NCBI GenBank assembly: GCA_031411095.1
Contig: JANOAK010000022.1
Span: forward strand, 39,866 to 103,865
Direction: 5' to 3'
DNA from: Flavobacteriales bacterium
Lineage (GTDB): Bacteria > Bacteroidota > Bacteroidia > Flavobacteriales_F > PHOS-HE28
DNA: 64,000 bases
Part shown: positions 696-36,389 of the stretch, one piece after another
Numbering within the stretch: position 1 is the stretch's first letter
Layout of the letters: each line of letters begins with the position of its first letter
Notes under the pieces: generated by a model
What the model was told of the DNA's origin: nothing
What the model saw: only the letters and a program-made list of their open reading frames with translations
The model's database searches: none
Translations under genes and position numbers: made by a program

Positions 696-796
696 ATTAA
701 CGAGGGGTCTCGGCGTTATGGCCGGGGCCCTTCGCCATTTTTGGCATTCGGCCGTGGTACGGTCTTCGCCATGGCGGCATCTACTTTCGCGCACCC

Positions 797-1785: not shown

Positions 1786-1792
1786 GATCCCC

Positions 1793-3709: not shown

Positions 3710-3763
3710 GTGAAAAGGAGTGCGAAGGTATCGGAGTCGGCGGTTCGGGGTCGCGCACCGGGA

Positions 3764-4738: not shown

Positions 4739-4743
4739 GGGGA

Positions 4744-7152
4744 TCAGAACTTGATGTTCCAGGTAATGGAGGGGAGGACGGAGAACAGCGACACCTGTTT
4801 GGCCACCACTTGCAGATCGCCCGTGGCCAGGTTGCCGGTGTTGTCGAAGTAGATGAAGTAGGGGTTGGCGCGGTTGTAGGCGTTGTAGATGCTGAAGGTC
4901 CAGCTGCTGCGGTACTTGCGTGGCACCTGGGTCACTTCGCCGGTGGTCTTGTTCACCACCTTCTTCATGTCCTTGTTGATCAGCGTGGCGGCCAGGTCCA
5001 GGCGGTGGTAAGGCGCCATGCGGTAGCCGTTGCGCTCGGTGAACTCGCTCACCAACCGCCCTTCGATCCAGTACCTGTTCACCGGTAGTGTAACGGCCTG
5101 CCCCGTCTGGTAGGTGAAGGTGGCGCCGAAGCTCCAGCGCTTGTTCAGCTCATAGGCGGCCACCACGCTCAGGTCGTGCCGGCGGTCCCAGCGGCTGGGG
5201 AATTCGCGGCCCTGGTTCAGGTCGGGGAACTTCCGCATGGTCTTGCTCCACGTGTAACCCACCCAGCCGTTCAAGCGACCTGTGCGCTTCTTCAGGAAAA
5301 GTTCGGCGCCATAGGAGTACCCATTGCCGAACACGAGGTTCGCGTCGTAGTTGGTGTTGCCGTTGTCCTGCGGCTGCGCGCCTTCCTTGTATTCGATGAG
5401 GTTCTGCATGTCCTTGTAGTACACCTCCACGCTGCCCTCGTAGGCGCGCTCCTTGAAATCGTGGAAATAACCCGCGGCGTATTGGATGCCGACCTGCGGC
5501 TTCACGTTCTTTCCGGTGGGCACCCACACATCCGTGGGCAGGGCGATGCTGCTGAAGCTCGCCAGGTGGACATATTGCAGATTGCGGTTCACGCTGGCCT
5601 TCAGGCTGCTCATTTCATCCAGCCGGTAGCGCATGGACAGGCGGGGTTCCAGGCCGGCATAGCTCTTCACGGCCTTGCCGCCGCCGTAGGTGATCAGTTC
5701 TCCGGTGGGTTCACCTTGGGCGTCCAGCACGTACTCCTTGAAGGGCCCCACCTGGGCGAACATCGTGAGGCGCAGGCCGCCGTTCAGCCGGATGCGATCG
5801 GAGACGTCGAATTCATCCAGGGCGTACACGGCCACCTCATGCGCCAGCAGCTTGCTGGGCTCGTCAATGTTGAACTGGGTGTCGCCGCTTTCCACCGATA
5901 CGGTGCTGGGCGTGTACTTGTGGAAGATGTACTGGCCGCCGTACTTCAAGCTGTGGCGCACACTGGGGTATTGGCTCAGGTCCACCTTCAGCCCGTAGTC
6001 TTTGATCCCGCTGAAGAGCTTGAAGGCGAAGTCGCTTTGCCCGCCGTTGAACTCGAATTGATAATCGCTGAAGGTGGCGGTGGTGTTCATGAAGAGCTTC
6101 GGCCCGAACACGTGGTTCCACCGGCCGGCCACGGTGGCATTGCCCCATGGGATGCGGAACTGGGGATCGCCAGGGTCGCTGGAGCCGAGGTCGAAGACGT
6201 CGCGTCCGAAGTAGCCGCTGAGGTACAGCCGGTCCTTGTCGCTGATCCTGTAATTGGCTTTGGCGTTCAGGTCGTAGAAGTAGTAGTTCGTTCCGCCGAA
6301 GTTCGCGTTGTTCTTCAGGAAGGGTTTGGTGATCACATCCACATAGGTGCGGCGGCCACTGACCACGAAGGAGCTGCGGTCCTTGATCAGCGGACCTTCG
6401 AGCGTGAGGCGCGAACTGATGAGGCCGATGCCGCCCTGCCCGTGCAGGCCCTGGTCGTTGCCCTCCTTCATGGTGATGTCCAGCACCGAGCTTGTCCGGC
6501 CACCGTAGTTCGCGGGCATGCCCCCCTTGATCAGCTCCAGGTTCTTCACGGCATCGGCGTTGAATACGCTGAAGAATCCAAAGAGGTGACTGGCGTTGTA
6601 CACGGTGGCCTCGTCCAGCAGGATCAGGTTCTGGTCGGGCCCGCCGCCGCGTACGTAGAAGCCGCTGTTGCCTTCGCCATTGCTCTTCACCCCCGGAAGG
6701 AACTGGATCACTTTCAGGATGTCCACCTCGCCCAGGAGCGCGGGCAGGGTGTTCAGCTTCTGTACATCCACATCGATCCGACCCATGTCGGTGCTCTCCG
6801 TGTTGCTTTTGCGTTTCTCCTTCACCACCTCCACGGCCTTGATCTGCACCACGGTGGGCTTCAGGTCCAGGTTCAACTTGGTGTCCGCCGTGAGTTGAAC
6901 CGTGCGCTCCGCGTCCTGGAAACCGATGTAGCGCGTCACGAACGTATACGTCCCACCCGGCAGGGTAACGGAGTAGAAGCCATACGTGTTGGTAGGGACG
7001 CCCTTGCCGATCTCGCGGATGAACACGCTGGCACCGATCAGGGCCTCGCCGCTGGACGAATCGGTGACATAGCCGCTGACCGTGAAGCGGTCCTGGGCGT
7101 AGGAGGTAGCGCCCAAGGTGATGGCGAAGAACACGATGAGGACGAAGCGCAT
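4744..7152 (-). CDS. TonB-dependent receptor with N-terminal carboxypeptidase-regulatory-like domain
   Basis: Signal peptide at MRFVLIVFFAITLGATSYAQ (ORF extends spuriously to 7278). CarbopepD_reg-like FTVSGYVTDSSSGEALIGASV. Plug and beta-barrel motifs. C-terminal ...WNIKF. Confidence 0.9.
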   Translation of the reverse strand: MRFVLIVFFAITLGATSYAQDRFTVSGYVTDSSSGEALIGASVFIREIGKGVPTNTYGFYSVTLPGGTYTFVTRYIGFQDAERTVQLTADTKLNLDLKPTVVQIKAVEVVKEKRKSNTESTDMGRIDVDVQKLNTLPALLGEVDILKVIQFLPGVKSNGEGNSGFYVRGGGPDQNLILLDEATVYNASHLFGFFSVFNADAVKNLELIKGGMPANYGGRTSSVLDITMKEGNDQGLHGQGGIGLISSRLTLEGPLIKDRSSFVVSGRRTYVDVITKPFLKNNANFGGTNYYFYDLNAKANYRISDKDRLYLSGYFGRDVFDLGSSDPGDPQFRIPWGNATVAGRWNHVFGPKLFMNTTATFSDYQFEFNGGQSDFAFKLFSGIKDYGLKVDLSQYPSVRHSLKYGGQYIFHKYTPSTVSVESGDTQFNIDEPSKLLAHEVAVYALDEFDVSDRIRLNGGLRLTMFAQVGPFKEYVLDAQGEPTGELITYGGGKAVKSYAGLEPRLSMRYRLDEMSSLKASVNRNLQYVHLASFSSIALPTDVWVPTGKNVKPQVGIQYAAGYFHDFKERAYEGSVEVYYKDMQNLIEYKEGAQPQDNGNTNYDANLVFGNGYSYGAELFLKKRTGRLNGWVGYTWSKTMRKFPDLNQGREFPSRWDRRHDLSVVAAYELNKRWSFGATFTYQTGQAVTLPVNRYWIEGRLVSEFTERNGYRMAPYHRLDLAATLINKDMKKVVNKTTGEVTQVPRKYRSSWTFSIYNAYNRANPYFIYFDNTGNLATGDLQVVAKQVSLFSVLPSITWNIKF

Positions 7153-16724: not shown

Positions 16725-17019
16725 CGTGGAACCGGCCTCTCCACCAGCACCCGACCCTCGCCAGCGCCTCACTGCACGGGAGCGCCAATACGTGGTGCTC
16801 GTGTGCCGGCGCGAAGAACCGGGCCGGGCACAGATCGCCGAGCAGATGGGCGCCACCGAAAAGACCGTGGAAACGCACCGCGCCAACGTGTACCGGAAAT
16901 GGGGTGTACACACACGCCTCGAACTGCTGTACAAGGCCGTGGACCTGGGCGTGGTGGCCTGCCCGTGCAGTGGATATAAAGGTGCACAGGGCCCCGCCGA
17001 AGCGGCAAGTAGGACCTAA
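16725..17019 (+). CDS. small LuxR/GerE-type HTH protein (possible GTG start; may be a remnant)
   Basis: C-terminal 60 aa LTARERQYVVLVCRREEPGRAQIAEQMGATEKTVETHRANVYRKWGVHTRLELLYKAVDLG is a clean LuxR HTH. Upstream part of ORF 16528-17019 has no REC features. A degenerate copy of the same DNA recurs at 21705-21810. Confidence 0.4.
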
Positions 17020-19249: not shown

Positions 19250-21613
19250 TCATGGGCTCGGCCCAACCGACTCGAACACCTGCACACTTGCCAGTATCCG
19301 GTTGATATCCCCGAGTACCGGAGGCTTCACCAAATGGTGGTCGAAACCGGCTTCCTGCGACCGCCGCTTGTCCTCATCCTGGCCCCAGCCCGTAAGGGCG
19401 ATCAACACCATCCCCGGGCCCCATGCTTCGCTGCGCAGCCGCCGGGCCACTTCGTAACCGTTCATGTTGGGCATACCGATATCCAGCAATACGATCCCGG
19501 GCCTTACGGCGGCGGCCACCGCCAACGCCTGCGCACCATCGTGCGCTTCGTGGACCACATGACCTTGCGCTTTCATCAGCATGGCCAGCGATGTGGCGCC
19601 ATCCACATTGTCATCCACGATCAGCAGCGTGTGCTTCGGCACCTTCGCGAGGGGGCGCTGCGAGGGAAGGGTACGCTCCTCCGGCACTTCGCACAAGGGT
19701 ATCCGCAGGGTGAACGTGCAGCCCTTGTTGCGGCCTTCGCTCACCACGTCCACGGAACCACCATGCATTTCGGCGAGGTTCTTCGTAAGCGAGAGGCCGA
19801 TGCCCAAGCCGCTGGTGTTGCGCTCCAAGGACGTATCGGCCTGCCCGAACAATTCGAAGATCTTCCCCTTCTCATCGGGCTCCAGACCTATACCTGTATC
19901 ACGCACGTGGATGCACGCATGGCCTTCTTCCGCGCTTAAGGTCAATGCGATGCTGCCGTGCGAGGGCGTGAACTTGCTCGCGTTGTTCAAGAGGTTGCCG
20001 ATGGCCTGCACCAACCGTGTTCCGTCACCATGTACATGGAGCGGTGCGGACGGTAGTGAGATGTTGAACACCTGTTGCGCGCTCTCCATCTGCGGCCTTA
20101 TGCTCTCCGCGGCTTGATGGATCAACGGGGCAAGCTCCACGACCGCTTTGCGCAACACGATCTTTCCGTGGCTTATACGGCTCACATCCAACAGATCATC
20201 CACCAAGCGGATCAACTGTCGCATCTGCCGCTTCATCATCGCGTACACCGTGGCCTTTTCGGGGTCAGCGTCCTCGGCCAATAGCTCCAGCCCGTTGTTG
20301 ATGGGAGCGAGCGGGTTGCGCAGTTCGTGGGCCAGCGTGGCCAGGAATTCATCCTTTCGCCGATCGGTTTCGATAAGGGACCTTTCCACACGCTTCTGCT
20401 CGGTGATGTCCACCTGAGTGCCCCAGGCGCGCAGGAACAGGCCGTCCTCTACGATGCCCACCAGGTTGTTGCTGAAGTAGAGGGTGTTCCCCTGCTTGTC
20501 CCGCTCCTCGCTTTCCCCGGCCTGCAACGCGTAGCCACCCGCCATAAAGGCACGGAGGTAAGCTTCGTTCTCCGGGTTGCGGGGCACGAGATCGCCGAAC
20601 CGGGCACCCACCAACTCGCTGCCCTGCGTGAAGCCGTAGATGCCGGCCATGGCATCATTGCATTCCGCCATGTAGGCATGCGCGTACACCCAGTCCAATG
20701 CGGCGTTCTCCGGCAGGTCAATAGGCATGGGCTGTGCAAGTTCGCAGCGCCAGATGCCTTCAGAACTGTTCCGGATGAATGCTTGGTACCGCTGTTCGGA
20801 AGCGTGCACCGCCTGTTCGCTTTCCCGCCGCAGGCGTTCATGCTCCCGCACGGCCTGGGCCAGCCACCACAGCACCACGAGCAACAACACGATCTCGAAC
20901 ACGGTGCGCAACACCGCACCGAATCTGGGATCATAATAGCCGGCCATTTCCCCCAGCTCGCGAAGCATGCTGAACACGATCGGCAGCAGCACCAAGACCG
21001 GTAGTGCGCGCCGGACCATTGCACCGGTGGCGCTCATTTCCAACAGCGTGCGGATGGGATCCTCTTCGGGCAAGCCCGCCATGAGGCCCAAGCCCAGAAG
21101 CATGAAGCAGATGGACGTGTTGAGGGCGATGGTGGATATGGTCGGGAGGAGGTAGAAATGGTGCGCCTGGAACAAATAACCCAACACCGAAAGGGAGGAG
21201 ATCCCGATGCAGAGGCCGGCCCCCACCACCGCCGGTGTGCGCCACGCTCTCCCGAAGGTGGAAAGGATGAGCGCCGCATTGATGATCATGAACATGATGC
21301 TTGCAGGCGGACCCATGCGGCTGGGCGCGTTGGCACCCCGCTGCCCCCAATCAGCGGTCACGAACAACTCATCGATGCCCAGATCCACCTCGAACAGGTG
21401 CTCGCACGCGGTGGCGGCACCGATACAGCCGGCCACCGCAGCACAAAGACGTGCGCCGCTGATGTGCGGCCCGTTCCGCTGCCACAAGGCAGCACCGGAC
21501 AGCACCAGGCCCAGGCCCGTGTTGAAGAACATGGATACACCCACATTGGGCCAGTCGGTGAGCCATGGTATGCCCAGCAACCAGCCCGACATCGTACTGG
21601 CGCCCATGATCAT
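19250..21613 (-). CDS. hybrid sensor histidine kinase with N-terminal multi-TM sensor domain (TM-PAS-HisKA-HATPase-REC), paralog of 17063-19060
   Basis: Same H-box, ATPase and REC motifs. About 8 predicted TM helices N-terminally. The annotated GTG start at 21745 overlaps a degenerate LuxR-HTH remnant, so ATG at 21613 (MIMGAST...) is preferred. True start uncertain. Confidence 0.8.
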   Translation of the reverse strand: MIMGASTMSGWLLGIPWLTDWPNVGVSMFFNTGLGLVLSGAALWQRNGPHISGARLCAAVAGCIGAATACEHLFEVDLGIDELFVTADWGQRGANAPSRMGPPASIMFMIINAALILSTFGRAWRTPAVVGAGLCIGISSLSVLGYLFQAHHFYLLPTISTIALNTSICFMLLGLGLMAGLPEEDPIRTLLEMSATGAMVRRALPVLVLLPIVFSMLRELGEMAGYYDPRFGAVLRTVFEIVLLLVVLWWLAQAVREHERLRRESEQAVHASEQRYQAFIRNSSEGIWRCELAQPMPIDLPENAALDWVYAHAYMAECNDAMAGIYGFTQGSELVGARFGDLVPRNPENEAYLRAFMAGGYALQAGESEERDKQGNTLYFSNNLVGIVEDGLFLRAWGTQVDITEQKRVERSLIETDRRKDEFLATLAHELRNPLAPINNGLELLAEDADPEKATVYAMMKRQMRQLIRLVDDLLDVSRISHGKIVLRKAVVELAPLIHQAAESIRPQMESAQQVFNISLPSAPLHVHGDGTRLVQAIGNLLNNASKFTPSHGSIALTLSAEEGHACIHVRDTGIGLEPDEKGKIFELFGQADTSLERNTSGLGIGLSLTKNLAEMHGGSVDVVSEGRNKGCTFTLRIPLCEVPEERTLPSQRPLAKVPKHTLLIVDDNVDGATSLAMLMKAQGHVVHEAHDGAQALAVAAAVRPGIVLLDIGMPNMNGYEVARRLRSEAWGPGMVLIALTGWGQDEDKRRSQEAGFDHHLVKPPVLGDINRILASVQVFESVGPSP

Positions 21614-21704
21614 GACGATCAACGCGGCCGCACGGGGTATCCATTGGGCCAGGTGGGATGGCGAGATCAATCGACAGGGCGTCTTTTGGTCTAGCGAATA
21701 TAAT

Positions 21705-21810
21705 CGCGCGCACCGCGCGAACGTGTACCGGAAATGGGTGTGCACACCCGGCTCGAACTGCTATACAAGGCCGTGGAATTGGGCGTGGTGGCCTGCCAGT
21801 GTGGTGGACA
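21705..21810 (+). pseudogene. degenerate, frameshifted copy of LuxR-HTH coding fragment
   Basis: CGCGCGAACGTGTACCGGAAATGGGTGTGCACACCCGGCTCGAACTGCTATACAAGGCCGTGGAATTGGGCGTGGTGGCCTGCC is ~85% identical to 16868-16960. Missing one G, which breaks the frame. Confidence 0.45.
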
Positions 21811-21939
21811 CCGGGGTAGGGACGATCGGCAGCAGACAGGGGTACGACCGGAGTTGTGAAAACCCCGCCAGGGCCTGGGGCAACTACCTACCGTATTCGC
21901 GAGGCTCCGCGCTCTGGCGGAGCCGAAGCGATCGTTCAT

Positions 21940-22330
21940 TCACGGTGTCACTTAAGGACCAAGGCCAAAGCCGCGCCTGCGGCCACTTAAAAAGCTTCGA
22001 GGCTCAAAAGCTTAAAGGCCCTCAGCCAGCGCAGCCACTCTGTCACCTGAGCTCGAGGCTCGAGGCCAACGCAGTGCCACCGGCAACTGAAAAAGCTTCG
22101 AGGCTCAAAAGCCAAAAGGCATAAAGCCAGCGCAGCCACTGTGACACCTGAGCCTGAAGTCTGAGGCCAACGCCGAGCCAGCGGAAACTGAAAAAGCTCG
22201 TGGCCCAAAGGCTCAAAGGCCTTCAGCCAGCGCAGCCACTGTGTCACCTGTGCTCGAGGCTCGAAGCCATCGCAATCTTCGAGGCTCAGAGGCTCAAAAG
22301 GCCCAAGCCAGCGCAGCCACGGGTCACCTA
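21940..22330. repeat. block of degenerate ~100-bp tandem repeats (AAAAGCTTCGAGGCTCAAAAGC...CAGCCAGCGCAGCCACTGTG...)
   Basis: 3-4 imperfect units seen directly. No credible ORF. Shares short blocks (TTAAGTGGCCGCAGGC, AGGCATAAAG, CCAAAGGCC) with the repeat block at 29190-29470. Confidence 0.6.
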
Positions 22331-22500
22331 TATGTGTCGTCCTGAAAAAGGATGACCAGTTGTGTCAACCTTGGGCAAGATAAGACACCTACTTTAACAG
22401 TGAATTTTTGTTTTGCCGCAGGCTGAGTTGTTCCGGGAGGCCATGGGCAGGAGCCTGTTGGCTTGCACTAAGGATTTGGCCTTCCGGATCAACTCATTCA
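22331..22500 (+). promoter_or_regulatory. putative CRISPR leader (AT-rich)
   Basis: Locally AT-rich (…TTTAACAGTGAATTTTTGTTTTGCC…). Immediately 5' of the first repeat in the inferred direction of array transcription. Confidence 0.4.
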
Positions 22501-23325
22501 GCTGTGATCTGATACCGAGTCGCGTTCTTTGAGAGGGCCTCATGGGTTGTAGCGTTGCTTACAGTGCTGTGATCTGATACCGAGTCGCGTTCTTTGAGAG
22601 GAACGACGCCGACAAGGCCCAACGTCAGCAGGCTGTGATCTGATACCGAGTCGCGTTCTTTGAGAGGCTCGCGCCAGTCGTCGAGCTTCTTCTGGATGCT
22701 GTGATCTGATACCGAGTCGCGTTCTTTGAGAGGTCTACTTCGCTTGCGCCCTTGGCGGGCTTGGCTGTGATCTGATACCGAGTCGCGTTCTTTGAGAGGA
22801 TGCGTTGGTGGCTTGCCCCGTCAAGGCCGGCTGTGATCTGATACCGAGTCGCGTTCTTTGAGAGGCTGCGTGCGTTACGATGCTCACCTTGTTGTGCTGT
22901 GATCTGATACCGAGTCGCGTTCTTTGAGAGGCCTTGTGCCGTTTCAACACGCCGATCACAGCTGTGATCTGATACCGAGTCGCGTTCTTTGAGAGGGGAA
23001 CCGAAGACCGGCACCACCCGAGTAGGGCTGTGATCTGATACCGAGTCGCGTTCTTTGAGAGGCTCGTCCATCAGAATGCCGCTGATGCGGAGCTGTGATC
23101 TGATACCGAGTCGCGTTCTTTGAGAGGGCACCAGCGGAACGCTACAGCTGGCCAGCGGCTGTGATCTGATACCGAGTCGCGTTCTTTGAGAGGATTGCCC
23201 GTACCCTGAGTACGACCGCGACAGCTGTGATCTGATACCGAGTCGCGTTCTTTGAGAGGACCACACACACCGTGAACACAGGCTACCTAGCTGTGATCTG
23301 ATACCGAGTCGCGTTCTTTGAGAGG
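22501..23325 (+). CRISPR. CRISPR array, 13 identical 36-bp repeats GCTGTGATCTGATACCGAGTCGCGTTCTTTGAGAGG, 12 spacers of 29-30 bp
   Basis: Repeats counted by hand. Starts: 22501, 22566, 22632, 22698, 22764, 22830, 22896, 22961, 23027, 23092, 23158, 23224, 23290. Strand is the inferred transcription direction. Confidence 0.97.
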
Positions 23326-23387
23326 AGCACAGGAACGCACTTCTTGTGCTTCAGGCAGTTGTAATGGCACTCGGTGGGAAGAATATC

Positions 23388-23414
23388 GCTGTGGGACCCC
23401 TCGGGTCCCACAGC
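23388..23414. terminator. 12-bp-stem hairpin GCTGTGGGACCC-ctc-GGGTCCCACAGC between cas2 stop and array
   Basis: Seen directly. Likely terminator for the cas9-cas1-cas2 transcript (minus strand) and insulator from array read-through. Confidence 0.5.
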
Positions 23415-23434
23415 GGCTTCCCGAATTACCAGCC

Positions 23435-23794
23435 CTAGAAAAGCTCCAGCTGGCTCGGGGCAGGAGCGAGGGCTTCTCGTACCCGACCCAGTATGTTGAT
23501 CATCCCGCTGTATTGCTTGTCGGTGATCTGGAGGATTGTCACTTGACCTTCCTTGGGAACGAACTTCTGCACGCGTTTGATGTGGACCAGCATGCTTTCG
23601 CGACTGGCACAATGCCGGGTGTACACGCTGAACTGGAGCATGTTGAACCCATCGGCCATGATGTGCTTGCGGAAGTGCGTGTAAATGTGGCGGTATTCCC
23701 GTGTGCTCGTAGGCAGATCGAAGAAAACGAAGAGCCACATGATCCGATACGCGTTCAGGCAATAGTGCGTGTTGCGCCCTTTGTGTGTGCCCAT
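23435..23794 (-). CDS. cas2: CRISPR-associated endoribonuclease Cas2 (type II)
   Basis: 119 aa. Bacteroidota II-C Cas2 signature ...YRIMWLFVFFDLPT...FRKHIMADGFNMLQFSVYTRHCASRE... Confidence 0.9.
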   Translation of the reverse strand: MGTHKGRNTHYCLNAYRIMWLFVFFDLPTSTREYRHIYTHFRKHIMADGFNMLQFSVYTRHCASRESMLVHIKRVQKFVPKEGQVTILQITDKQYSGMINILGRVREALAPAPSQLELF

Positions 23795-23798
23795 GGGT

Positions 23799-24692
23799 TC
23801 ATCGGAGTACAGGATAGTTCAATTTGCGACCCTCCTTCTCGAAACAACCCACCAGGCTTTGCGCGGTGCGGTGCAGTGCTACCATCATGGGGCCTTTCTT
23901 TCCGTCCTGTTTTACGTCGGCCAGCACCGTGCCGATCAGTTGGGCTTTCGCACGTTTGTCCAACTCATCAATGCCAAGTTGTAGTAGTTCCACCACCTCA
24001 GCATCGATGTATGGTCGGTATGGCTCCATAAGGTCGTCCGCTAAGCAGAAAGCGTTGTATTTATTGCTATGGTGAATGCCCAATGTGGGCAACAATCCGG
24101 CGGCCACTATTGCCCGCGCAGTAGCGGCACGGAGTACCGAATACCCATAATTCAAAGCGGCATTTGGCCAGGCACCTTCGCGCTCGCGACGGAATTCGTG
24201 CAGGAACAATTGTCCCCAATAGGCTTTGGCCGCGCGCGCCTCGTGGTTCTCGCTATCACCACTTTTCACATCACTGGCCATTTGGCGCAGGGCTTGGCCG
24301 TCCTTGCCCAGCGTATCCAACATACCGGCCTGGTTCAGGATCTTGGCTTTTACGGTTTGCTGCCAGAGCTGTTTGGTCAAGGGCAGGCTGGCTTCGATCT
24401 GCTTCTTGAAGCGGTGGTGCTGAAGCACATTGCCACTAAGCGGAAGGAGCAGGCCAGCAGGGTGGTAATCAGCGCCACAGAACACGACGGCCACGTTGTG
24501 CGCCATCAGTTCCTGCATGGCGGCGTGGGTGTAGGTAAGCTGTGGGTGCTCCAGCATCAGCACCGCCGTGTCCTCAATGGGGCGGTTGATGATCTCGCCT
24601 GTGTCTTTGTTGGTGATGACCAACTGGCTCAGCCTTACCGAGAGGTGGTAAGGCTGGCTGAAATGGAGGATGCGTCCGACCATAGTTTGCAC
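23799..24692 (-). CDS. cas1: CRISPR-associated endonuclease Cas1 (type II)
   Basis: 297 aa. Cas1 fold motifs (NYGYSVLRA, LGIHHSNKYNAFCLADDLMEPYRP). Ends 4 bp before the cas2 start. Confidence 0.95.
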   Translation of the reverse strand: MQTMVGRILHFSQPYHLSVRLSQLVITNKDTGEIINRPIEDTAVLMLEHPQLTYTHAAMQELMAHNVAVVFCGADYHPAGLLLPLSGNVLQHHRFKKQIEASLPLTKQLWQQTVKAKILNQAGMLDTLGKDGQALRQMASDVKSGDSENHEARAAKAYWGQLFLHEFRREREGAWPNAALNYGYSVLRAATARAIVAAGLLPTLGIHHSNKYNAFCLADDLMEPYRPYIDAEVVELLQLGIDELDKRAKAQLIGTVLADVKQDGKKGPMMVALHRTAQSLVGCFEKEGRKLNYPVLR

Positions 24693-24743
24693 TTCTACGG
24701 AGAAGCGCTTGCCAAGGATCGGGCCAAGTGAGGTGGCTGCCTT

Positions 24744-27700
24744 CTACGCCATTAGGAAGGCCTTGCTGGGTAAGGGTTCCAGTTCAATGTCGATTCCATC
24801 AATAAGCATCTTTAGCGCATTGATGTTCATACGCAACCATCCCAAGGGAGCGTCGAGCCGCCACACTTCTATGAATTCGATCTCCGTGTCGCTACGGGAA
24901 TCGAGAACGTTCAAGAGATTGATGCGGCCATCACCCTCAAAGTAGCGGATGACAAACGTCCGCTTGTTCATTTCGACCGGATCGTCCCAATGGATCTCAT
25001 CAGATGACTCATTATATAGCACGACCAATTGCCCAGAGGTAAGAACGAGGCGCTTTCCATTGCGCTCCATCAACTTGAATGCAGTGCGTTTCGGATCAGG
25101 ATGGAGTAGCGGGATCGCACCGGCCATGGAGGATCTGCCACGTTTCCCGTGCATGGCCTGTACCACCTCGAACAAGCTGAAATTGTAGTGGGTTCGCTTG
25201 CCCTTGTCGGTTTCATAAAGCGCCATAACGGGGGCCTCTTCATTGGCTACCCATAGATGGTGTTTGTGCGGTGCATCTGGCCGCTGATCCCTGTGCTCCT
25301 TTATTGCCACAGGGTTCTTTACCCTGTCGAACACGCGGGCATGTTTCACGATACGAACGACCGGCTCACCATTGAATTTCCCCTTCCACTTCAGCCCACG
25401 GTCACTCTCAATAGCCACAGGATCTGCTTCAAGCAACGCTTCTCGCAATTTGGGGTCCACCACCTTGGCCATGTCCGCCTTGCTCATGCCCACTATCGGT
25501 TTCCGCAGCACCACATGTTCCTCGAATTCCTCAGTGCCAGGTTTATTCAGCTTGATCTTGCCATAGTACGTGTCCTTGTGCAGGGATCCGCGCACGCTGT
25601 CGCCTTGCGCCTTCACCTCCACCACACGCCCATCTTTCAGTTTCACCTTTCGATCATATACGCTCGTGCGCCCAATGCTCGGCTTGCGCACATGGTACAC
25701 TAGAGCCGAATCGCGCAGGTTGCGCATGTCCGTTCCAAAGGTCTTCCATGGGTGTTCGAAGCTCGCGGTCACATCCTTTTCGTCATGCTCTTCATAGTGG
25801 TGCGCTAGTGCATTGAACTCGGCCTTGTCCACGGCGGCGCAAACAGCAGCATCCACAGCGTGGTGCGTGTGCTTGCTCCGGTCTTTCGCATGCACGAAGC
25901 TCTCACCCATCCATTCTTTTCGGAAAGCGCTAAGTGCTTCTGGCTTCAGGCAGTCTACCCGGTTGAAGTAACTGTTCATGTACGCCCTTGCCAGCTTGGT
26001 GATCTGCCCGGTGGCTACCAATTGGCGGTTCATGAATCCCGGTTTGATCTCTTCGGCAGTCAAGTGTTCGTACTTGGTGCGCCAATAGTCGCGGAAGAAT
26101 TGGTTGAACCAACGGTCCTGAATCGCCTTATCCTTTGCCTCTTTCGTAGCCGCGCTCTTGCTGCTCATCTTGCAGGCATAGACGGTACGGTCGTACTTGT
26201 CATAGAGCTTCTTGATCACTTCGGCTGTTTCCTTGATGCCGGGCAACATCTTGCCTTGCACCATGACTTCTTTATCGTAGTTCGGCAGCCTGGCGGGCAT
26301 GTGTTCTTTCTTGATCGTCCGGTTGTAGGTCGTGTCGCACAGCATTTTATTGGCCATGCTGTTATCCACGGTCTTGCTGCGCGGCCAGGTGTGCTCGATC
26401 TCCACACTGCCATTGAACAGGTCCGCAACTCCGAACTCCTTACCGGTGTATATGCACATCACTCTTCCGAAGATCTCCCGTGTCTCCTCAAGCAGCCACA
26501 TACGTTCGATGTCCTCGTCGCTGGGGTTGGTGTGTTTGCCTACGGTGGCGAAGTACTCCTTCACTGCAGTTTCTGCGCTCACGTTCTTCTTGCGCATCAC
26601 CGTTTGGTAGCGTTCCCATGCCTTGCGCTTGTTCGCGCTGTCGAGGTCGCGCGCCATTTCGATGTTCACCTGTGTTTTCCGGTCGATCAATCCGGCCTTG
26701 ATCATCTTGTTGATCAACATACGCAGGCTGTGCAGCGAGCGGTACACCATCGGGTTCTTAAGGCCGGGCGTCTTCGGGTCGCCGAGCTTGTCGCCGTGGT
26801 CCTTGTAGATGTTGATGGCGCTATGGTGGTAAAGCTTGTCCACATCTTTGGGCAGCAGACCGAAGTTGTCCATCAACCATTGTTTCACGCGATCGTCACG
26901 CCTAAGCAGCGGTTCGAACTGTACCTTCTGATGGTTCTCGATATGATGGAGGAATAAGGCCTTTACCTTTTCCCTTAAGGCGCTAATCACAACAGTGCTC
27001 TTGCTTCGCTTCTGTTCCAGGGAAAGCGTTTCGTCGATCCCTTTTCGTAGTTGTTCATCCCATGCACTGTTCCAGAATCCCTTGCGCCCACCTTCTTCGC
27101 CAAGCGAATCGCGATAGTGGCGGATGAGCCCATTGAACAGGAGCATTTCGACATTGTAGTCGCGGTGGTCCGCAATGCGCTCACGAATACCATTGCGTAT
27201 GGCTTCGCGATCCGATGCGCTCATGGCTGCCCAGCGATCATCCACCTTGGGAAGGAGGTGGCCACTTGGTCCTTTGACCATCTCCGTGACGAACTTTCCA
27301 TCCTTTCCATCCACCTTATGTACCACCTTGAAAATGGAAGGTAGGTTTGCCAGCATCACCGCATCGTGGTAGCCCATTGGGAGCTGCCCATCGATTCCAT
27401 ACATGAGCGGAATGATTCGACCCAGCGCACGGGTGCTGAGGTTATGATAGCCTTGCTTAGTATCGAACTTCTCCAGCAGCTTCAACTGCTCTTCATCGAA
27501 GTTCCATTGGGTAATAGCGTATTCCTTCAAGTCCCGCTTGCCACCAGTATCCTGCCCCTTGGCTTTGCGTTCGCTCAGGTCTGCCCAATCAAAAGCGTTA
27601 TAGATCACGCTGTATCGGTCCACCCACAGCTTGCGCTCATGGGCCTTGTCGTCTTCCATGGCACCAAAGGCATCCACGAGGGTCATTACATCCACCTTCC

Positions 27701-28751
27701 ACAAATCGGCGAGGTGAGCAATAGTTCGCGCACCGGGTAGCTTGTCTTTCTTCCTGTAGTTGAAGCTCCCTTCGCTGTCCCTCATCTTTAAGGCCTTCAG
27801 CACATCCTCGAAATCGAAGGAGGGTTTGCTGCGGCGAAAGAACTGGGGGAGGATCCTTTGCCGTTCTTCCGCATTCAACGGGCGATCATCCAAACGGATG
27901 TTGTTCACGGTCTGCAACACGCCGAACAGCTCCGCTTCAATGCTGCTGATGGGCGCGCGCCGCTTGCCCGGCTCCAGTGTGCAACGACCTACATCGCTCT
28001 TCTTGCCTTTGAGCGGGCGCTGGAAAAAGAGGTCGCCGGTCTTGCCATCGCCGAGTTCTGCTCTCAGTGCGTCGGTGAGAATAGGGTGGTGGTTCTTCTG
28101 TACATCCCATAGCTGGTTGAACTCATCCACCAGATCGCTGCGCTTGAAGTAACGCTTGCGAATGGCAGTGTGCGTCTTGCTTAGTTCGTGTCCAGCCTTG
28201 CCAAGTGTGCCATGATCGTTGATGAGCTTGAGCGTAGCGTTGTAGCCCGCTATGCCCTTTTCCTCAAGTCCTTCATGGAACGACTCCTGTTCACCATCGC
28301 CGCCTTTGCGGTTGCTCTGGAAACCACGCCGTTGGGATAGATGGTAGAGTATGCGGCCCAACTCCATCGGTGTCAACTTCTCTTCAAGCCCTTTCGCGCG
28401 CAACTCGTATGGGTTCAACTTGAACCACGTGATAAAGCCATCCTCCAAGGGATAGCGGTCTTTCACTTTCCAATTCTTCAAACCTTCCTCGCTCAGCGGG
28501 CACATGCCGTTCTTGATCAGGTGCAACAGCAAGCGTTGCTTGCGCATTCTCCGACGCATGTATAGCCTGCGCGTGGCGCGGCTGCGCGTGCGTTGTGCAG
28601 TGGCAGGTGTCTCACTGCCCTTCACGCGCGCAACGCCTTCGGGGAAGATGACCGAACCCGCAGCCGCGAGCTTCTTCACGCCATCCTCCTGCTCAATGAT
28701 CGCCCAACCAATGCTGTTGGTGCCGAGGTCCAGACCCAATGTCTTTTTCAT
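24744..28751 (-). CDS. cas9: type II-C Cas9 (1335 aa)
   Basis: RuvC-I MKKTLGLDLGTNSIGWAI. Arg-rich bridge helix QRTRSRATRRLYMRRRMRKQR. HNH SVEIEHTWPRSKTVDNSMANKML. RuvC-III HTHHAVDAAV. No csn2 or cas4, so type II-C. Confidence 0.97.
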   Translation of the reverse strand: MKKTLGLDLGTNSIGWAIIEQEDGVKKLAAAGSVIFPEGVARVKGSETPATAQRTRSRATRRLYMRRRMRKQRLLLHLIKNGMCPLSEEGLKNWKVKDRYPLEDGFITWFKLNPYELRAKGLEEKLTPMELGRILYHLSQRRGFQSNRKGGDGEQESFHEGLEEKGIAGYNATLKLINDHGTLGKAGHELSKTHTAIRKRYFKRSDLVDEFNQLWDVQKNHHPILTDALRAELGDGKTGDLFFQRPLKGKKSDVGRCTLEPGKRRAPISSIEAELFGVLQTVNNIRLDDRPLNAEERQRILPQFFRRSKPSFDFEDVLKALKMRDSEGSFNYRKKDKLPGARTIAHLADLWKVDVMTLVDAFGAMEDDKAHERKLWVDRYSVIYNAFDWADLSERKAKGQDTGGKRDLKEYAITQWNFDEEQLKLLEKFDTKQGYHNLSTRALGRIIPLMYGIDGQLPMGYHDAVMLANLPSIFKVVHKVDGKDGKFVTEMVKGPSGHLLPKVDDRWAAMSASDREAIRNGIRERIADHRDYNVEMLLFNGLIRHYRDSLGEEGGRKGFWNSAWDEQLRKGIDETLSLEQKRSKSTVVISALREKVKALFLHHIENHQKVQFEPLLRRDDRVKQWLMDNFGLLPKDVDKLYHHSAINIYKDHGDKLGDPKTPGLKNPMVYRSLHSLRMLINKMIKAGLIDRKTQVNIEMARDLDSANKRKAWERYQTVMRKKNVSAETAVKEYFATVGKHTNPSDEDIERMWLLEETREIFGRVMCIYTGKEFGVADLFNGSVEIEHTWPRSKTVDNSMANKMLCDTTYNRTIKKEHMPARLPNYDKEVMVQGKMLPGIKETAEVIKKLYDKYDRTVYACKMSSKSAATKEAKDKAIQDRWFNQFFRDYWRTKYEHLTAEEIKPGFMNRQLVATGQITKLARAYMNSYFNRVDCLKPEALSAFRKEWMGESFVHAKDRSKHTHHAVDAAVCAAVDKAEFNALAHHYEEHDEKDVTASFEHPWKTFGTDMRNLRDSALVYHVRKPSIGRTSVYDRKVKLKDGRVVEVKAQGDSVRGSLHKDTYYGKIKLNKPGTEEFEEHVVLRKPIVGMSKADMAKVVDPKLREALLEADPVAIESDRGLKWKGKFNGEPVVRIVKHARVFDRVKNPVAIKEHRDQRPDAPHKHHLWVANEEAPVMALYETDKGKRTHYNFSLFEVVQAMHGKRGRSSMAGAIPLLHPDPKRTAFKLMERNGKRLVLTSGQLVVLYNESSDEIHWDDPVEMNKRTFVIRYFEGDGRINLLNVLDSRSDTEIEFIEVWRLDAPLGWLRMNINALKMLIDGIDIELEPLPSKAFLMA

Positions 28752-28796
28752 GTTGCGAGAATTTCCGTCGTTGTTGCGTTGGTAATGTAGAAACTC

Positions 28797-28878
28797 CTTT
28801 ACTTCGTGGTATCAGATCACAGTAAGGCTATAAGCCGAAGTGAAAACTTGGCCCCTGCTTCGGTGGGGGCCTTTTCAT
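28797..28878 (+). ncRNA. predicted tracrRNA (anti-repeat + nexus-like element + terminator hairpin)
   Basis: 28808-28822 GGTATCAGATCACAG is the exact reverse complement of repeat nt 2-16. Followed by TAAGGCTATAAGCC (compare SpCas9 nexus AAGGCUAGUCCG). Then GGCCCC-tgcttcggtg-GGGGCC plus TTTTCATTT (28851-28880). Ends approximate. Confidence 0.6.
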
Positions 28879-29189
28879 TTCCTGTGGCATCGTCTCCGCC
28901 ACGGGATCTTGCACCCTGGAACCATCATTTTCGCCAGTATTCAGCTCGCCCCGCAATGCAAGCGAAGCGCGAACTGGCGACCACAAAGGCACTCTGCCTC
29001 CGTTCACCGGCAAACAAACCACCCACACGCCCTGTCGCGAAGTACGGCTTGAGATGGACCTGGAACCGGCAGCCTCCAAGCACTGAATGCACCGAAAGTC
29101 TTTCCCCGAAGTGCGGCCGAAAGCGCGCATGCAGCCAGCACCCCCCCCACCACAGAGAAGTTCAACACCAACGGTTTCGCCGAATTCAG

Positions 29190-29470
29190 GTGAAGGTGTT
29201 CGCCTAGTGCCAGCCGTTACAGACTGCCAGCAGGCGCTGCCCGGCCAAAAGCCCCATGCCACCTCCGCTGCGCGGAACAAGAGCCATTAAGTGGCCGCAG
29301 GCCAGCCAGCCCAAAGGCCTTGGGGCCGAATTCAGCAGGGTTAGAACTGGAAGCTATCGGCAAGCGCTGCCCGACCAAAAGGCCAAGGGACCTTCCGCTT
29401 CGCGGCCTTCAGCTCAGAAGTGCCGCAGGCAAAGGCCACTGGCCAAGAGCCTCCAGGCATAAAGCGTTAA
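29190..29470. repeat. dispersed short repeat family B (two diverged units)
   Basis: 29375-29433 CCAAAAGGCCAAGGGACCTTCCGCTTCGCGGCCTTCAGCTCAGAAGTGCCGCAGGCAAA is near-identical to 36331-36389. An upstream diverged unit at ~29226-29290. Confidence 0.6.
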
Positions 29471-29609
29471 GTGCCGACCGCCTACGCCTCACCTTTTCTA
29501 CGCTACGGCGAGCGAGGCACGGCTTCGGCGGATAATACAGGCAACACCGTGGCACCGCCAGCTTTTTTGGCCTTCAGGCTTAGCGGCTCAGAAGTGCGCG
29601 TGGGGCCGA

Positions 29610-30070
29610 GGCCACACATGCATACAGGGTGCTGGGTCCACGTGCACTGGGAACGATCGCTATACATGGGCACCCATGCGGCTGGGATGTGGCAACACGC
29701 TGCAAGCGTGGTCGCACACGGTTCACATGTGGCCGCACGCACAACGCATGTGCAGGCACACTTCCCGAAAGCATCCGCACCTTTCACCAATGTGCTCGCA
29801 CGTACCGCGCATGTGGGCGAACACGCACAGAACGTTTCGGCACCTTCCTCAAACGTGCTCGCACACCGCTGAACAGCTGTGCCACATGTCGCTCCTGCGG
29901 GGGAACATTCGCCGAAGGTGGTCGTACCTACCTGAAAAGCGGTTCAACATCTTGCTGATGTGGGGGAGCGTTCGCCGAACGTGGTCGCACCTGCCTGAAA
30001 TGCGGTTCCACCTGTTGCTCATGCGGGGGAACATTCGCCGAAGGTGGTGGCACAATTCCATGCGGTGTAA
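29610..30070. repeat. 63-bp-period tandem minisatellite (~7 units, two sub-families)
   Basis: Example units: GCACGCACAACGCATGTGCAGGCACACTTCCCGAAAGCATCCGCACCTTTCACCAATGTGCTC and GCACCTGCCTGAAATGCGGTTCCACCTGTTGCTCATGCGGGGGAACATTCGCCGAAGGTGGTG. Units aligned by hand. Confidence 0.7.
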
Positions 30071-30258
30071 GGACCGGGAACGATAGCATAAGCCCTTGCT
30101 GTAAGCCAGCTATACCCGGCCTTTCGGTGGTTGTGTACCAACGATCAGGCGCCGCCCAGGAAGGGCCGTCTAGGGAGAATTCCCGATATCCTGGAGCAGC
30201 GGGCGTGGGTACAAAGGCCACAAACCAGGCGGTAACCCCGCCATAAAACAACAGCCAA

Positions 30259-30873
30259 ATGGCAACAGTGAAAATAGGCGCAGACCGCCTCTCGGCCACG
30301 GAGCTTGTGGCAAAAGCCCAGGGTATCCACGATAAAGTGGTGGGCAATGCAGCGTTCCCCGACCCCACTCCCAAGGCGGCGGACTTCCAAGTGCTCATCG
30401 ACAAGTTGGCGGCGGCCAACGCAGCGGTGAACGTGAACGGCGGCAAGGCCGAACACCTGGCGAAGCGCACGGCGAAAGTGGCCATGCTTGCGGCGCTGAA
30501 AGGCTGGGCCGGGTATGTGCAGGCGGCTTCGGGCAGCGATGAGGAGGTGATCCTCAGCAGCGGTTTCGACGTGGTGCAGCGCGGTGGCCCCATCGGCGAG
30601 CTGAACCCGCCGAAGAACCTGCAGTCCAAGTTCACCAGCATGCTGGGGCGTGCCACCTTCAAGTGGGACCGCGAGGCAGGCGCCGACATGCACCACGTGT
30701 ACATGAGCGCCACCAGTGCCCCCTTCAACTGGGAGCTCATCGGGGTCACCACCAAGAGCCGCTTCAATGCGGACAACCTGGAGCCCGCCCGCATGTACTG
30801 GTTCGCCGTATCGGCCATTGGCGCCGCTGGCGAAACCAGCAAGAGCGAGCCGCTGATGGCCCGCGCCGCGTAA
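30259..30873 (+). CDS. hypothetical protein with C-terminal fibronectin-III-like domain
   Basis: 204-aa ORF. Good codon usage. FN3-like pattern (...KWDREAGADMHHVYMS...YWFAVSAIGAAGETSKS...). Confidence 0.5.
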   Translation: MATVKIGADRLSATELVAKAQGIHDKVVGNAAFPDPTPKAADFQVLIDKLAAANAAVNVNGGKAEHLAKRTAKVAMLAALKGWAGYVQAASGSDEEVILSSGFDVVQRGGPIGELNPPKNLQSKFTSMLGRATFKWDREAGADMHHVYMSATSAPFNWELIGVTTKSRFNADNLEPARMYWFAVSAIGAAGETSKSEPLMARAA

Positions 30874-31117
30874 GTCCAGCATCCATACTACGTCCTGCTC
30901 ACCGCCCTCCGTGCCGCCGCATGGGGGGCGGTGGCGTTTTGGGGGGCGCTGTTGATGTGGCCACCCATGGTAAGACCGGATAGATCCGATCTGCTCCTGT
31001 TCGCGGATCGCGAACGCAACGCCGGTATCGCTTGAAGTACCGGTTGACCCGCGTGGCCACACCGGAGGTTGCCCATGAATAGGAAGCCCAGCGCCCCCAC
31101 CACTGCCAAGAAGTTCA

Positions 31118-31210
31118 ACACCTACCGCTCCGCCTCCGGCGGACAGGCCTGCCATCGGCAGGCAGGCCTGCCTACCTCTTGTAGGTTCGCGGACCACAAG
31201 GAGATGCTGA
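31118..31210. repeat. dispersed intergenic repeat family C copy (AACACCTACCGCTCCGCCTCCGGCGG...GGCAGGCCTGCC...GGTTCGCGGACCACAAGGAG)
   Basis: 5' block shared with 36270-36300. 3' 20-mer GGTTCGCGGACCACAAGGAG shared exactly with 34647-34666. Contains the 12-bp palindrome GGCAGGCCTGCC. Confidence 0.55.
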
Positions 31211-31288
31211 TAGGCCAGTTAGCGGGTGTCGACGGTGAGTTTGTCCGTGCACGTTTAACGGTCCACCCGGAGGCAGGGAGTCGTGCGA

Positions 31289-32605
31289 TCACAACCTCTT
31301 CTTTTCGCTCACATCACCATTGATCCAAAGCATCTTCAAGCTGAAGTAGGTACCTGAGGCATCCGGCTCGAACCGCACCTGCACGTTCTCGTCCAGAATG
31401 AACATGTCCGGTCCCATGGGTTTGAGTTCGGTGATGTAGCCGCCCCGTTCGGCGTTCCTGCACTGCAAGTGCCCGTTCTGCACGTAGAAGTCCAGTCCAC
31501 CTTCGTACACGCCGGCGAAGGCGTGCAGCGCGGCAGGAAGGGGCGGTGGCTCCAATTCCGCGCGGCAGGCGTTCAAGTGCCACTGTAGCCTGTTCCGGTC
31601 TTGTTCCTCCGTCGCTTGTTCAAGCAACCGGGTGAAGATGCTGCATCGTGCTTGGGCCAGGGCCTCTTCTGAGGCAATGGGGACATCAGGCCGAACGCCG
31701 ATGCCTTCCCAGTCCACATTTTCCGGATGGCGCGCCACGGGAATGATGGCCACGAAGCCCTGCCCGATGTTGAACGCACCCCTGGGGTGCGCACCACCAC
31801 CGGTGGTATCGCCGACAATGATGGCCCGCTGCGCATGCTGCAGGCCCATGATGAAGTCCTCGGCCGCGGAGAACGTATAGTTACTGGAGAGGATGTAGAC
31901 CGGCATATTCAGCTTGAAGTCCGTGCGCTTCGGATCCGTGTATCGCACTAGGGTGTCACGACCACCTTGGATGATGTCGTTCATGTGCGTCCGTTCGGCA
32001 AAGAAGTAGTCCTGCATATGGAGCACCATGTCCGGTGATCCCCCGCCGTTGTAGCGGAGGTCGATGATGAGGGCGTCCGTGTTGCCGGTGAATAGGAAAG
32101 CGGCCGCTACTGTAGGAGCGGCTTCTGCGACCTGTCCGGCGAATCCATCCCAGCGGATGTAGCCGATATTGCCCGGCAGCACCTCGGTCTTGACGAACGC
32201 GAAATTCCGTTGCCGGGCGGCCTGGATGTCCTGTTCACGGTCCTGGTGTATCTCCGTGTCCGTTCTCCGCAGATCCAGTTGCGCAACAAGACCCGGGTCG
32301 TAGGCCACGTTCAAGTGACCATCCGGGTGTACGTGCTGAAGATCATCGGCGAGCATACGGGCGAGTTCGCGCCTGTTCTGGGCTGTTGCATACTTCTTCT
32401 TGCGTTGTTGCATCCGCAGGTCGTCGGCCATGTGCCCGGCGTGGTCGGGAAAGATGTAGATACGCTGCAAGGCGGCACTGAGACTGTCGATCAGCAGCCC
32501 CACTTGCTGGGTGTTCAGCTTTTCTCCTGGGTCTTCGCCCATGCCGGACAGGTCGATCTGGGCATGGCAGGGAAGGAACGCGAACACGATCCCAGCGAGT
32601 GCCAT
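31289..32605 (-). CDS. S41-family C-terminal processing peptidase
   Basis: IIDLRYNGGGSPDMV motif. Signal peptide from MALAGIVFAFLPCHAQ. Upstream ORF extension to 32872 is considered spurious. Start uncertain. Confidence 0.75.
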   Translation of the reverse strand: MALAGIVFAFLPCHAQIDLSGMGEDPGEKLNTQQVGLLIDSLSAALQRIYIFPDHAGHMADDLRMQQRKKKYATAQNRRELARMLADDLQHVHPDGHLNVAYDPGLVAQLDLRRTDTEIHQDREQDIQAARQRNFAFVKTEVLPGNIGYIRWDGFAGQVAEAAPTVAAAFLFTGNTDALIIDLRYNGGGSPDMVLHMQDYFFAERTHMNDIIQGGRDTLVRYTDPKRTDFKLNMPVYILSSNYTFSAAEDFIMGLQHAQRAIIVGDTTGGGAHPRGAFNIGQGFVAIIPVARHPENVDWEGIGVRPDVPIASEEALAQARCSIFTRLLEQATEEQDRNRLQWHLNACRAELEPPPLPAALHAFAGVYEGGLDFYVQNGHLQCRNAERGGYITELKPMGPDMFILDENVQVRFEPDASGTYFSLKMLWINGDVSEKKRL

Positions 32606-36269: not shown

Positions 36270-36389
36270 TGTGAACACCTACCGCTCTACCTCCGGCAGT
36301 CTTGTCCTGACCGAGATTTACACAACCAGACCAAAAGGCCAAAGGACCTTCCGCTTCGCGGCCTTAAGCTCAGGAGTGCCGCAGGCAAA
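36270..36389. repeat. composite repeat: family C 5' block (36270-36300) followed by family B unit (36331-36389)
   Basis: AACACCTACCGCTCTACCTCCGGCAG. Then CCAAAAGGCCAAAGGACCTTCCGCTTCGCGGCCTTAAGCTCAGGAGTGCCGCAGGCAAA. Confidence 0.6.

Follow-up and report, generated by a model that had tools for sequence, protein, structure and literature searches.

We analysed a 64,000-nt stretch of DNA from a Flavobacteriales bacterium (GenBank assembly GCA_031411095.1, contig JANOAK010000022.1, positions 39,866 to 103,865 of the forward strand), hereafter called the window, and the CRISPR-Cas9 locus that it carries. Judged from its sequence, the locus is, as a first-pass annotation of this DNA had proposed, a complete type II-C CRISPR-Cas9 system, including the repeat array and the trans-activating CRISPR RNA (tracrRNA); its plan is ordinary. 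The type II assignment is based on a Cas9 with split RuvC and HNH domains, a tracrRNA with a structured tail and a terminator, and an adjacent array with cas1-cas2; the subtype is based on the lack of both csn2 (II-A) and cas4 (II-B) from the locus. The system is apparently complete and active, and we consider it very probable that it is a functional type II-C adaptive immunity locus of an uncultured Flavobacteriales bacterium with a high guanine and cytosine (GC) content.

Cas genes and repeat array

The main features of the locus are listed below with their positions in the window; crRNA denotes CRISPR RNA.

24744-28751, minus strand: cas9, 1335 aa, with RuvC-I/II/III, bridge helix and HNH all intact
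23799-24683, minus strand: cas1, 294 aa; the open reading frame (ORF) reaches a GTG at 24692, and the same 294-aa call is found in another assembly (L083)
23435-23794, minus strand: cas2, 119 aa, matching PF09827 and TIGR01573
23387-23415: GC-rich hairpin in the gap between cas2 and the array, with a 13-pair stem
22501-23325, plus strand in crRNA sense: CRISPR array with 13 repeats of 36 nt and 12 spacers of 29-30 nt
28808-28881, plus strand: predicted tracrRNA, divergent from cas9, with an anti-repeat, three hairpins and a U-run

Profile searches assigned the three proteins to their expected families. Cas9 matched TIGR01865 (E 1.5e-132) together with the Pfam families HNH_4, RuvC_III and Cas9_a; Cas1 matched the type II family TIGR03639 (E 2e-83) and PADLOC Cas1_II (E 2e-110); and Cas2 matched TIGR01573 (E 2e-19) and PADLOC Cas2_II (E 4e-43). 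The catalytic motifs of Cas9 were all recovered, namely, RuvC-I LGLDLGTNSIGWA with D8, the arginine-rich bridge helix RTRSRATRRLYMRRRMRK, RuvC-II NIEMARD with E698, HNH EIEHTWPRS...YNR with H787 and N810, and RuvC-III HTHHAVDAAV with H964 and D967. These six residues were invariant or almost invariant in an alignment of 24 clade members. Neither csn2 nor cas4 was found at the locus, and the spaces between cas9, cas1, cas2 and the array leave no room for a further gene. ORFs, families and motifs thus agree with the earlier description of a leftward cas9 (1335 aa), cas1 and cas2 set lacking csn2 and cas4.

The hairpin between cas2 and the array was likewise confirmed, with 13 pairs in our scan and not the 12-bp stem described before. 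It was called as a terminator on the minus strand, and its stem is kept with changed sequence in the related loci L081, L086 and L088; in L086 and L088, GGCTTC(C/T)C and then a stretch rich in T come after it on the plus strand. The hairpin is probably a two-way terminator, as judged from these sequences. An Rfam scan of positions 20000-32000 (E <= 1) gave no match.

The array was confirmed downstream of cas2 with 13 perfectly identical copies of the repeat GCTGTGATCTGATACCGAGTCGCGTTCTTTGAGAGG, and shuffled sequences gave chance expectations of 0.31 and 0.00 matches for the repeat halves. The repeat begins GCTGTGATC and ends TTTGAGAGG. Repeats of the clade share one layout: the 5′ part, which pairs with the tracrRNA, is conserved, positions 17-22 vary, positions 23-31 hold the invariant G[A/T]TCTTTGA, and the last four to five nucleotides vary again. 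The motif is invariant in all seven 36-nt repeats of the clade, at a constant distance from the repeat end; L075, a Flavobacteriales locus that is more distant, has it in its 47-nt repeat too. The tracrRNA holds no complement of this motif, and no clear anti-repeat was found when the Pontiellaceae loci and L075 were searched to see whether TCTTTGA pairs with a tracrRNA there. The array is short compared with those of relatives (13 versus 46-70 repeats). In the 66-spacer array of L088, one spacer is present twice (crRNA-sense spacers 30 and 46).

TracrRNA and crRNA strand

The predicted tracrRNA is composed of the following elements, all on the plus strand.

28808-28823, plus strand: anti-repeat GGTATCAGATCACAGT, matching the reverse complement of repeat nucleotides 1-16 at all but one position
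28826-28836, plus strand: nexus-like hairpin AAGGCTATAAGCC
28838-28849, plus strand: GAAA-capped hairpin AAGTGAAAACTT
28850-28871, plus strand: tracrRNA terminator GGCCCCTGCTTCGGTGGGGGCC, followed by TTTTCATTT (U-run) as the last element

The anti-repeat is the only other match to the repeat in the 64 kb and lies 56 nt upstream of the cas9 start, as expected from the earlier claim of a single plus-strand anti-repeat that pairs with the 5′ end of the repeat. The order of anti-repeat, tail and terminator is present on the plus strand only. The plus-strand terminator behind the anti-repeat and tail fixes the strand of the tracrRNA, and therefore that of the crRNA as well; we infer plus-strand crRNAs, with the array read towards cas2 and antisense to the cas operon. 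Anatomy, conservation and covariation of the tracrRNA agree with the left-to-right crRNA production that had been suggested for the window.

Relatives were compared across loci L081, L084-L097 and L002, whose Cas9 proteins are from 86% down to 37% identical and which share one layout without exception. As long as Cas9 identity is about 50% or more (L081, L084, L086, L088 and L091-L093), the tracrRNA core ATCAGATCACAGTAAGGCTATAAGCCG.AGTGAAAACTTGGCCCCTGC.TCGGTGGGGGCCTT hardly changes; it varies in a compensatory manner in L095, L097 and L002. In an alignment of eight sequences, 94% of the cells of the three-hairpin structure were paired and four pairs had changed on both sides, compared with 32-57% paired when the partners were slid by one to three columns as a control. 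Across the clade, the anti-repeat and positions 2-13 of the repeat change together (covariation), as in the following examples.

Window: repeat 5′ end CTGTGATCTGAT, anti-repeat ATCAGATCACAG (reference)
L097: repeat 5′ end CTGTGGATTGAC, anti-repeat GTCAATCCACAG (four compensated differences from the window)
L095: repeat 5′ end CCGTGAATTGAT, anti-repeat ATCAATTCACAG (two compensated differences from the window)

The window repeat and anti-repeat form 16 pairs, a terminal G-U included, versus 12-13 in relatives, where the duplex is shorter because ACC or ATC replaces the GGT of the window (28808-28810). This GGT is the reverse complement of the ACC in the relatives compared (L081, L084, L088 and L091); the difference could be a 3-nt inversion or a coincidence. 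Discontinuous pairing beyond 16 bp, proposed by RNAduplex with sequence 25-45 nt upstream of the anti-repeat, was rejected; its register varies between loci, and L084, L091 and L093 have unrelated sequence there.

Spacer uptake and transcription of the array

The two flanks of the array are the candidates for the side on which spacers are taken up.

23326-23386, plus strand: cas2-proximal flank, 49% GC, at the 3′ end in crRNA sense
22331-22500, plus strand: cas2-distal flank, earlier named the leader, 48% GC, upstream of the array in crRNA sense

Spacer comparisons indicate that related arrays gain spacers next to cas2. Two loci with the same Cas9 from two samples (L086 and L087) have 45 spacers in common in the same order, to which L086 adds a further spacer on the cas2-proximal side. 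L088 and L089 share 37 consecutive cas2-distal spacers and then diverge; at least 24 cas2-side spacers of L088 are missing from L089 even when four errors are allowed, and the converse is also true. The junction A[G/T]CA at the cas2-proximal array end is conserved. By analogy with these relatives, we infer that 23326-23386 is the spacer-uptake (leader) side in the window.

The first-pass annotation had placed an AT-rich leader at 22331-22500. Its AT-richness is real, but the cas2-proximal flank is equally AT-rich (49% versus 48% GC, with 60% in the window), and the segment shows no sequence conservation with the equivalent flank in L086 or L089; hardly any sequence separates the array of L089 from a preceding folate-enzyme gene. 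Because the flank is unconserved and related arrays grow at the opposite end, the segment would not be the uptake leader, and the leader label is probably wrong for spacer uptake.

The same segment is central to the model of the first-pass annotation, in which a promoter in 22331-22500 drives a single long precursor crRNA through all 13 repeats to cas2, with the flank as leader. A precursor promoter there is possible: the flank is AT-richer than the genome, the direction is consistent with the tracrRNA, and two overlapping boxes about 85-95 nt upstream of repeat 1 (22403-22410 and 22408-22415) each match the Bacteroidota -7 box TAnnTTTG at five of six positions. Type II-C systems can also have leader promoters besides repeat promoters (PMC12638026). 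However, neither box has a TTG 17-21 nt upstream, and both the missing conservation of the flank and the opposite uptake end in relatives speak against the model. In addition, the newest spacers would sit farthest from the promoter, by up to 4.5 kb in the 60-70-repeat arrays of L088 and L089. We therefore regard this single-promoter model as possible but rather unlikely.

Transcription of the array would most likely start inside it, from elements of the repeats, by analogy with other II-C systems. The candidate element is the invariant G[A/T]TCTTTGA, which ends 5 nt before the repeat end, its TTTG ending 6 nt before; the G of the motif, 6 nt before the spacer, is at about the spacing of a -7 box for a start at the first spacer base. 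The motif matches TAnnTTTG at four of six positions in the window and at five of six in L086, L093, L095 and L097. An extended -10 element of the Neisseria type (a TGnTAnAAT-like repeat end) is not present in the repeat, which ends TTTGAGAGG.

A comparable element precedes the tracrRNA.

28752-28807: gap of 56 nt between the cas9 ATG and the anti-repeat, in which positions 28799-28806 form a conserved box, TTACTTCG

The box, T[AT][TA][AC][CT]T[TC]G in general form, lies at a fixed distance from the anti-repeat in seven loci and matches TAnnTTTG at four to five of six positions, so that it may be the -7 element of the tracrRNA. In that case, the 5′ end of the primary transcript would lie close to the beginning of the anti-repeat. 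A scan for sigma-70 promoters found sites no commoner than in shuffled sequences and none in the array or tracrRNA flanks.

A doubtful idea is that the clade uses a distinct minimal guide system, in which the tracrRNA promoter abuts the anti-repeat, the primary transcript has just 12-16 nt of anti-repeat and RNase III trimming is not needed, the -7 element in each repeat (G[A/T]TCTTTGA) starts each crRNA at the first spacer base, and the protospacer adjacent motif (PAM) is new. If true, this would be the first sequence-level definition of a repeat-embedded promoter suited to the Bacteroidota sigma factor, and a large Cas9 would have a natural guide scaffold as compact as about 70 nt.

Targets and activity

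One spacer has a perfect viral match.

22668-22697, plus strand: spacer 3, 30/30 to the 52-kb viral contig IMGVR_UViG_3300049847_000386 (L103, 3094-3123, plus strand)

The protospacer lies within a 185-aa ORF that adjoins a 701-aa ORF with weak matches to tail proteins, and the viral contig has a host-like GC content of 62%. This 30/30 match indicates that the system targets phage. The search covered exact 20-24-mers of eight of the 12 spacers against IMG/VR, in which spacers 12, 11, 10, 8 and 2 had no match. Core matches of 20-21 nt for spacers 9 and 4 were rejected as chance, with six to seven mismatches in the remaining 9-10 nt, as were four further core matches of spacer 3. BLAST of the whole spacer region produced only chance-level hits (E >= 0.2), both among 50,697 records of cultured phages and among 72,556 of plasmids, and within the window the spacers match nothing but themselves. 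The spacer search that had been recommended for deriving the PAM thus yielded a target but not the motif: the flanks of the spacer 3 protospacer, in crRNA sense, are GATCCCGTCGTC on the 3′ side and CTATGCCCTC on the 5′ side, and a single site defines no PAM consensus.

A silent or decaying relic with no present immune function might also be considered. The array is short relative to those of relatives, a target was found for one spacer only, and the locus is 5-6 GC points under the genome, suggesting acquisition from elsewhere. Against this, all three ORFs are intact with every catalytic residue conserved, the repeats are perfect, the complementarity between repeat and anti-repeat (16 bp) exceeds that in relatives (12-13), and the spacer 3 target is a viral contig of host-like GC. 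Hence, a relic appears improbable.

Array orientation

The first-pass annotation had made the antisense array its headline. This arrangement is ordinary for type II-C. Arrays were detected in 55 fetched loci, five of them from this clade, and most of the other type II-C loci had the array on the strand opposite cas9. Most of the non-Bacteroidota II-C repeats fetched end, in crRNA sense, with TATAAT, TACAAT or a TACACT-like sequence. In the literature, II-C systems are described with the array opposite to cas2, spacer uptake at the 3′ end and repeat-borne promoters (PMC7665894, PMC12638026); citing Zhang 2013 and Dugar 2013, PMC7665894 describes arrays opposite to cas2 with promoters within the repeats for Neisseria and Campylobacter. 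Transcription towards the variable end and putative repeat-encoded promoters have been reported for the II-C arrays of F. columnare and F. psychrophilum (PMC8092290, PMC10309648). The usual combination of an array opposite to cas2 and 3′-end uptake fits here, with the orientation taken from the tracrRNA and the uptake polarity from relatives. Every organisational feature of the locus, the antisense array included, follows the known II-C pattern.

That the array is instead co-transcribed with the cas operon, with the RNA upstream of cas9 likewise on the minus strand, is very hard to believe: complementarity is symmetric and cannot separate the strands, and Chylinski et al. took co-directional arrays as the default for untested loci (PMC3737331), but the hairpins would then come first and the anti-repeat would precede the cas9 5′ untranslated region, so that the order of every known tracrRNA would be turned round, the terminator and U-run sit on the plus strand, a strong hairpin stands between cas2 and the array, and the plus-strand repeat starts GCTGTGA..., resembling the GTTGTG... 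5′ ends of other II-C repeats.

Proposed working of the system

We propose the following working of the type II-C locus. The genes cas9-cas1-cas2 would be transcribed leftward, ending at the hairpin 23387-23415. A tracrRNA of about 70-75 nt, with a 13-16-nt anti-repeat, three hairpins and a U-run, would be transcribed rightward, divergent from cas9. The array would be transcribed rightward to cas2 from G[A/T]TCTTTGA in each repeat, and a promoter in 22331-22500 may contribute. Each crRNA would consist of a spacer and the 5′ part of the downstream repeat (GCUGUGAUCUGAUACC...), which would pair with the anti-repeat and load into Cas9. New spacers would be added by Cas1-Cas2 on the side next to cas2, where the array has its 3′ end in crRNA sense; spacer 12 would therefore be the newest and spacer 1 the oldest.

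Several points weigh against this reading. The strands, ends and promoters of tracrRNA and crRNA are derived from sequence. Uptake polarity was observed in relatives and not in the window genome, and the array of the other assembly (L083) is collapsed to one repeat and is therefore uninformative on polarity; all 13 window repeats are identical, so no degenerate terminal repeat marks the old end. A target was found for just one of the eight spacers searched. As a promoter, the repeat motif agrees in the window with only four of the six Bacteroidota -7 positions, and the -33 position of the repeat is CTG and not TTG. Perfect TAnnTTTG sites are rare in the window (four in 128 kb, both strands), and because they are so few the promoter consensus of the host is uncertain. 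A similar GTTCTTTGA occurs at a different position in repeats of Pontiellaceae, which are not Bacteroidota (L004, L005 and L026); hence, the repeat motif may equally well serve integration by Cas1-Cas2, or something else.

Cas9 relationships and comparison with known systems

About 35 proteins at >=37% identity make up the clade of this Cas9, and several of them are annotated as proteins of Flavobacteriales metagenome-assembled genomes (MAGs); none of the members looked up is from a cultured organism. Outside the clade, identity falls to about 30% (Flavobacterium, Alistipes, Treponema and others). In a sequence search against solved structures, only the N-terminal ~325 aa matched chains of the NmeCas9 type (E 1e-33). 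The C-terminal 344 aa, in which the PAM-interacting part should lie, were modelled with a mean predicted local distance difference test (pLDDT) score of 70, and some 60% of the model's length was good. By fold, the model matched CbCas9 best (Foldseek E 3e-9, probability 1.0, 16-17% identity, low TM-scores), followed by St1Cas9, a type II-D Cas9, Cas9d and Actinomyces naeslundii Cas9. The protein is an uncharacterised ortholog of known architecture without a close characterised relative, and the earlier suggestion of a new ortholog held when it was checked against characterised Cas9 proteins.

In Neisseria meningitidis and Campylobacter jejuni, the II-C systems (work of Zhang et al. 2013 and of Dugar et al. 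2013, relayed in PMC7665894 and PMC12638026) likewise have only cas9-cas1-cas2, and are alike in an array downstream of cas2 that is read towards cas2, opposite the cas operon, in 3′-end uptake and in crRNAs that are expected to start within the array. In contrast, the window repeat lacks the TAnAAT-like extended -10 end (it ends GAGAGG) and begins GCTGTGATC, not GTTGTAGC or similar; the window Cas9 is about 250 aa longer; and the window tracrRNA lies upstream of, and divergent from, cas9.

The II-C systems of Flavobacterium, in F. columnare B185 and with Fp1Cas9/Fp2Cas9 in F. psychrophilum (PMC8092290, PMC10309648), come from the same bacterial order (Flavobacteriales) and likewise show 36-nt repeats and transcription towards the variable end, and repeat promoter elements of the Bacteroidota type have been proposed there. 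However, Flavobacterium-named Cas9 proteins are only about 30% identical to the window Cas9, and the -33 TTG proposed in their repeats is CTG in the window repeat, whose host has about 60% GC. The PAM reported for F. columnare is NNNNNTAAA, whereas none was derived for the window ortholog. The F. columnare II-C locus carries a ParDE toxin-antitoxin insert (PMC8092290), and three clade loci carry an Xre-RES insert; the window has none. In these three loci, genes for an Xre/ParS-like antitoxin and a RES toxin lie between cas9 and cas1 (L090 4383-5306, L091 4952-5875 and L092 10107-11030). In L091 (39-569), L092 (5235-5765) and L097 (5336-5863), cas9 and the tracrRNA have a divergent HIRAN-domain gene immediately upstream, and in L092 this gene adjoins a condensin-like MksB-MksE-MksF set (516-5138); neither occurs in the window.

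CbCas9 (PDB 8iyq and 8wmm, deposited with and without PcrIIC1) is of the same large II-C size class (1442 versus 1335 aa), but by sequence only residues 2-75 of the window Cas9 match it. No additional ORF that could be a PcrIIC1 counterpart was found among the ORFs of the locus, which were inspected without a PcrIIC1 profile; a copy may lie elsewhere in the genome.

The weight of the locus for basic biology is small, since it keeps to the known type II-C plan. Modestly new are the Cas9 ortholog, its PAM and the well-supported compact tracrRNA of a small uncultured clade. The cas2-proximal uptake and the invariant repeat motif extend the picture of repeat promoters plus 3′-end uptake to GC-rich uncultured Flavobacteriales. 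The practical value is one more uncharacterised Cas9 ortholog, from a clade with a well-defined conserved tracrRNA; this conservation means that a single-guide RNA could be designed directly from the data (20-24-nt spacer + GCUGUGAUCUGAUACC + GAAA + GGUAUCAGAUCACAGUAAGGCUAUAAGCCGAAGUGAAAACUUGGCCCCUGCUUCGGUGGGGGCCUUUU).

Host and genomic setting

An identical Cas9 exists in a public protein collection (P0001). The same Cas9 is present in a Flavobacteriales MAG as three pieces called hypothetical proteins (MBK7383095, MBK7383096 and MBK7383098; 299, 828 and 139 aa), a split most likely due to frameshift errors of long-read assembly and not to a pseudogene. The same 15 kb is found in L083, a short-read assembly of another sample. 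The Bacteroidota host proposed before is supported by the Flavobacteriales MAG, with a GC content that is unusually high. GC is 60% over the window and 54-56% in the CRISPR-Cas region (22001-29000), 5-6 points lower than in the surrounding DNA (60-61%), which is consistent with horizontal acquisition.

The flanking ORFs encode a hybrid histidine kinase, an fn3-like ORF, an S41 peptidase and others without a family. A 204-aa ORF near the locus in the window is unrelated to that in L090, and a 146-aa ORF upstream of cas9 in L084 has no counterpart in the window.

Tandem repeats were observed on both sides of the locus, as the first-pass annotation had noted.

21955-22320: tandem repeat of 101 nt, three to four copies, 65-87% identical
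29845-30053: tandem repeat of 63 nt, three copies
29230-29275 and 29360-29405: pair of 46-nt repeats

The two flanking blocks are mutually unrelated, and a role as terminal repeats of an island was rejected. The 101-nt repeat contains many AAAGGCY words, and every unit ends AGCCAGCGCAGCCAC, a 15-mer unique to the block in the window; ORFs across it gave no Pfam match. Short-period GCCTAWWG repeats lie past the cas2-distal array end in L086 (11593-11742). Upstream of the tracrRNA, about 1.4 kb (28882-30258) holds no family-matching ORF, which is unusually long for bacterial non-coding DNA.

Dispersed copies also occur in the window, namely, 21709-21808 and 16874-16974 (89% over 101 nt) and 29370-29433 and 36326-36389 (94% over 64 nt), and may be a family of small intergenic elements. 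The 21709-21808 repeat also matches L095 (8055-8157), where it adjoins another Cas9 locus of the clade.

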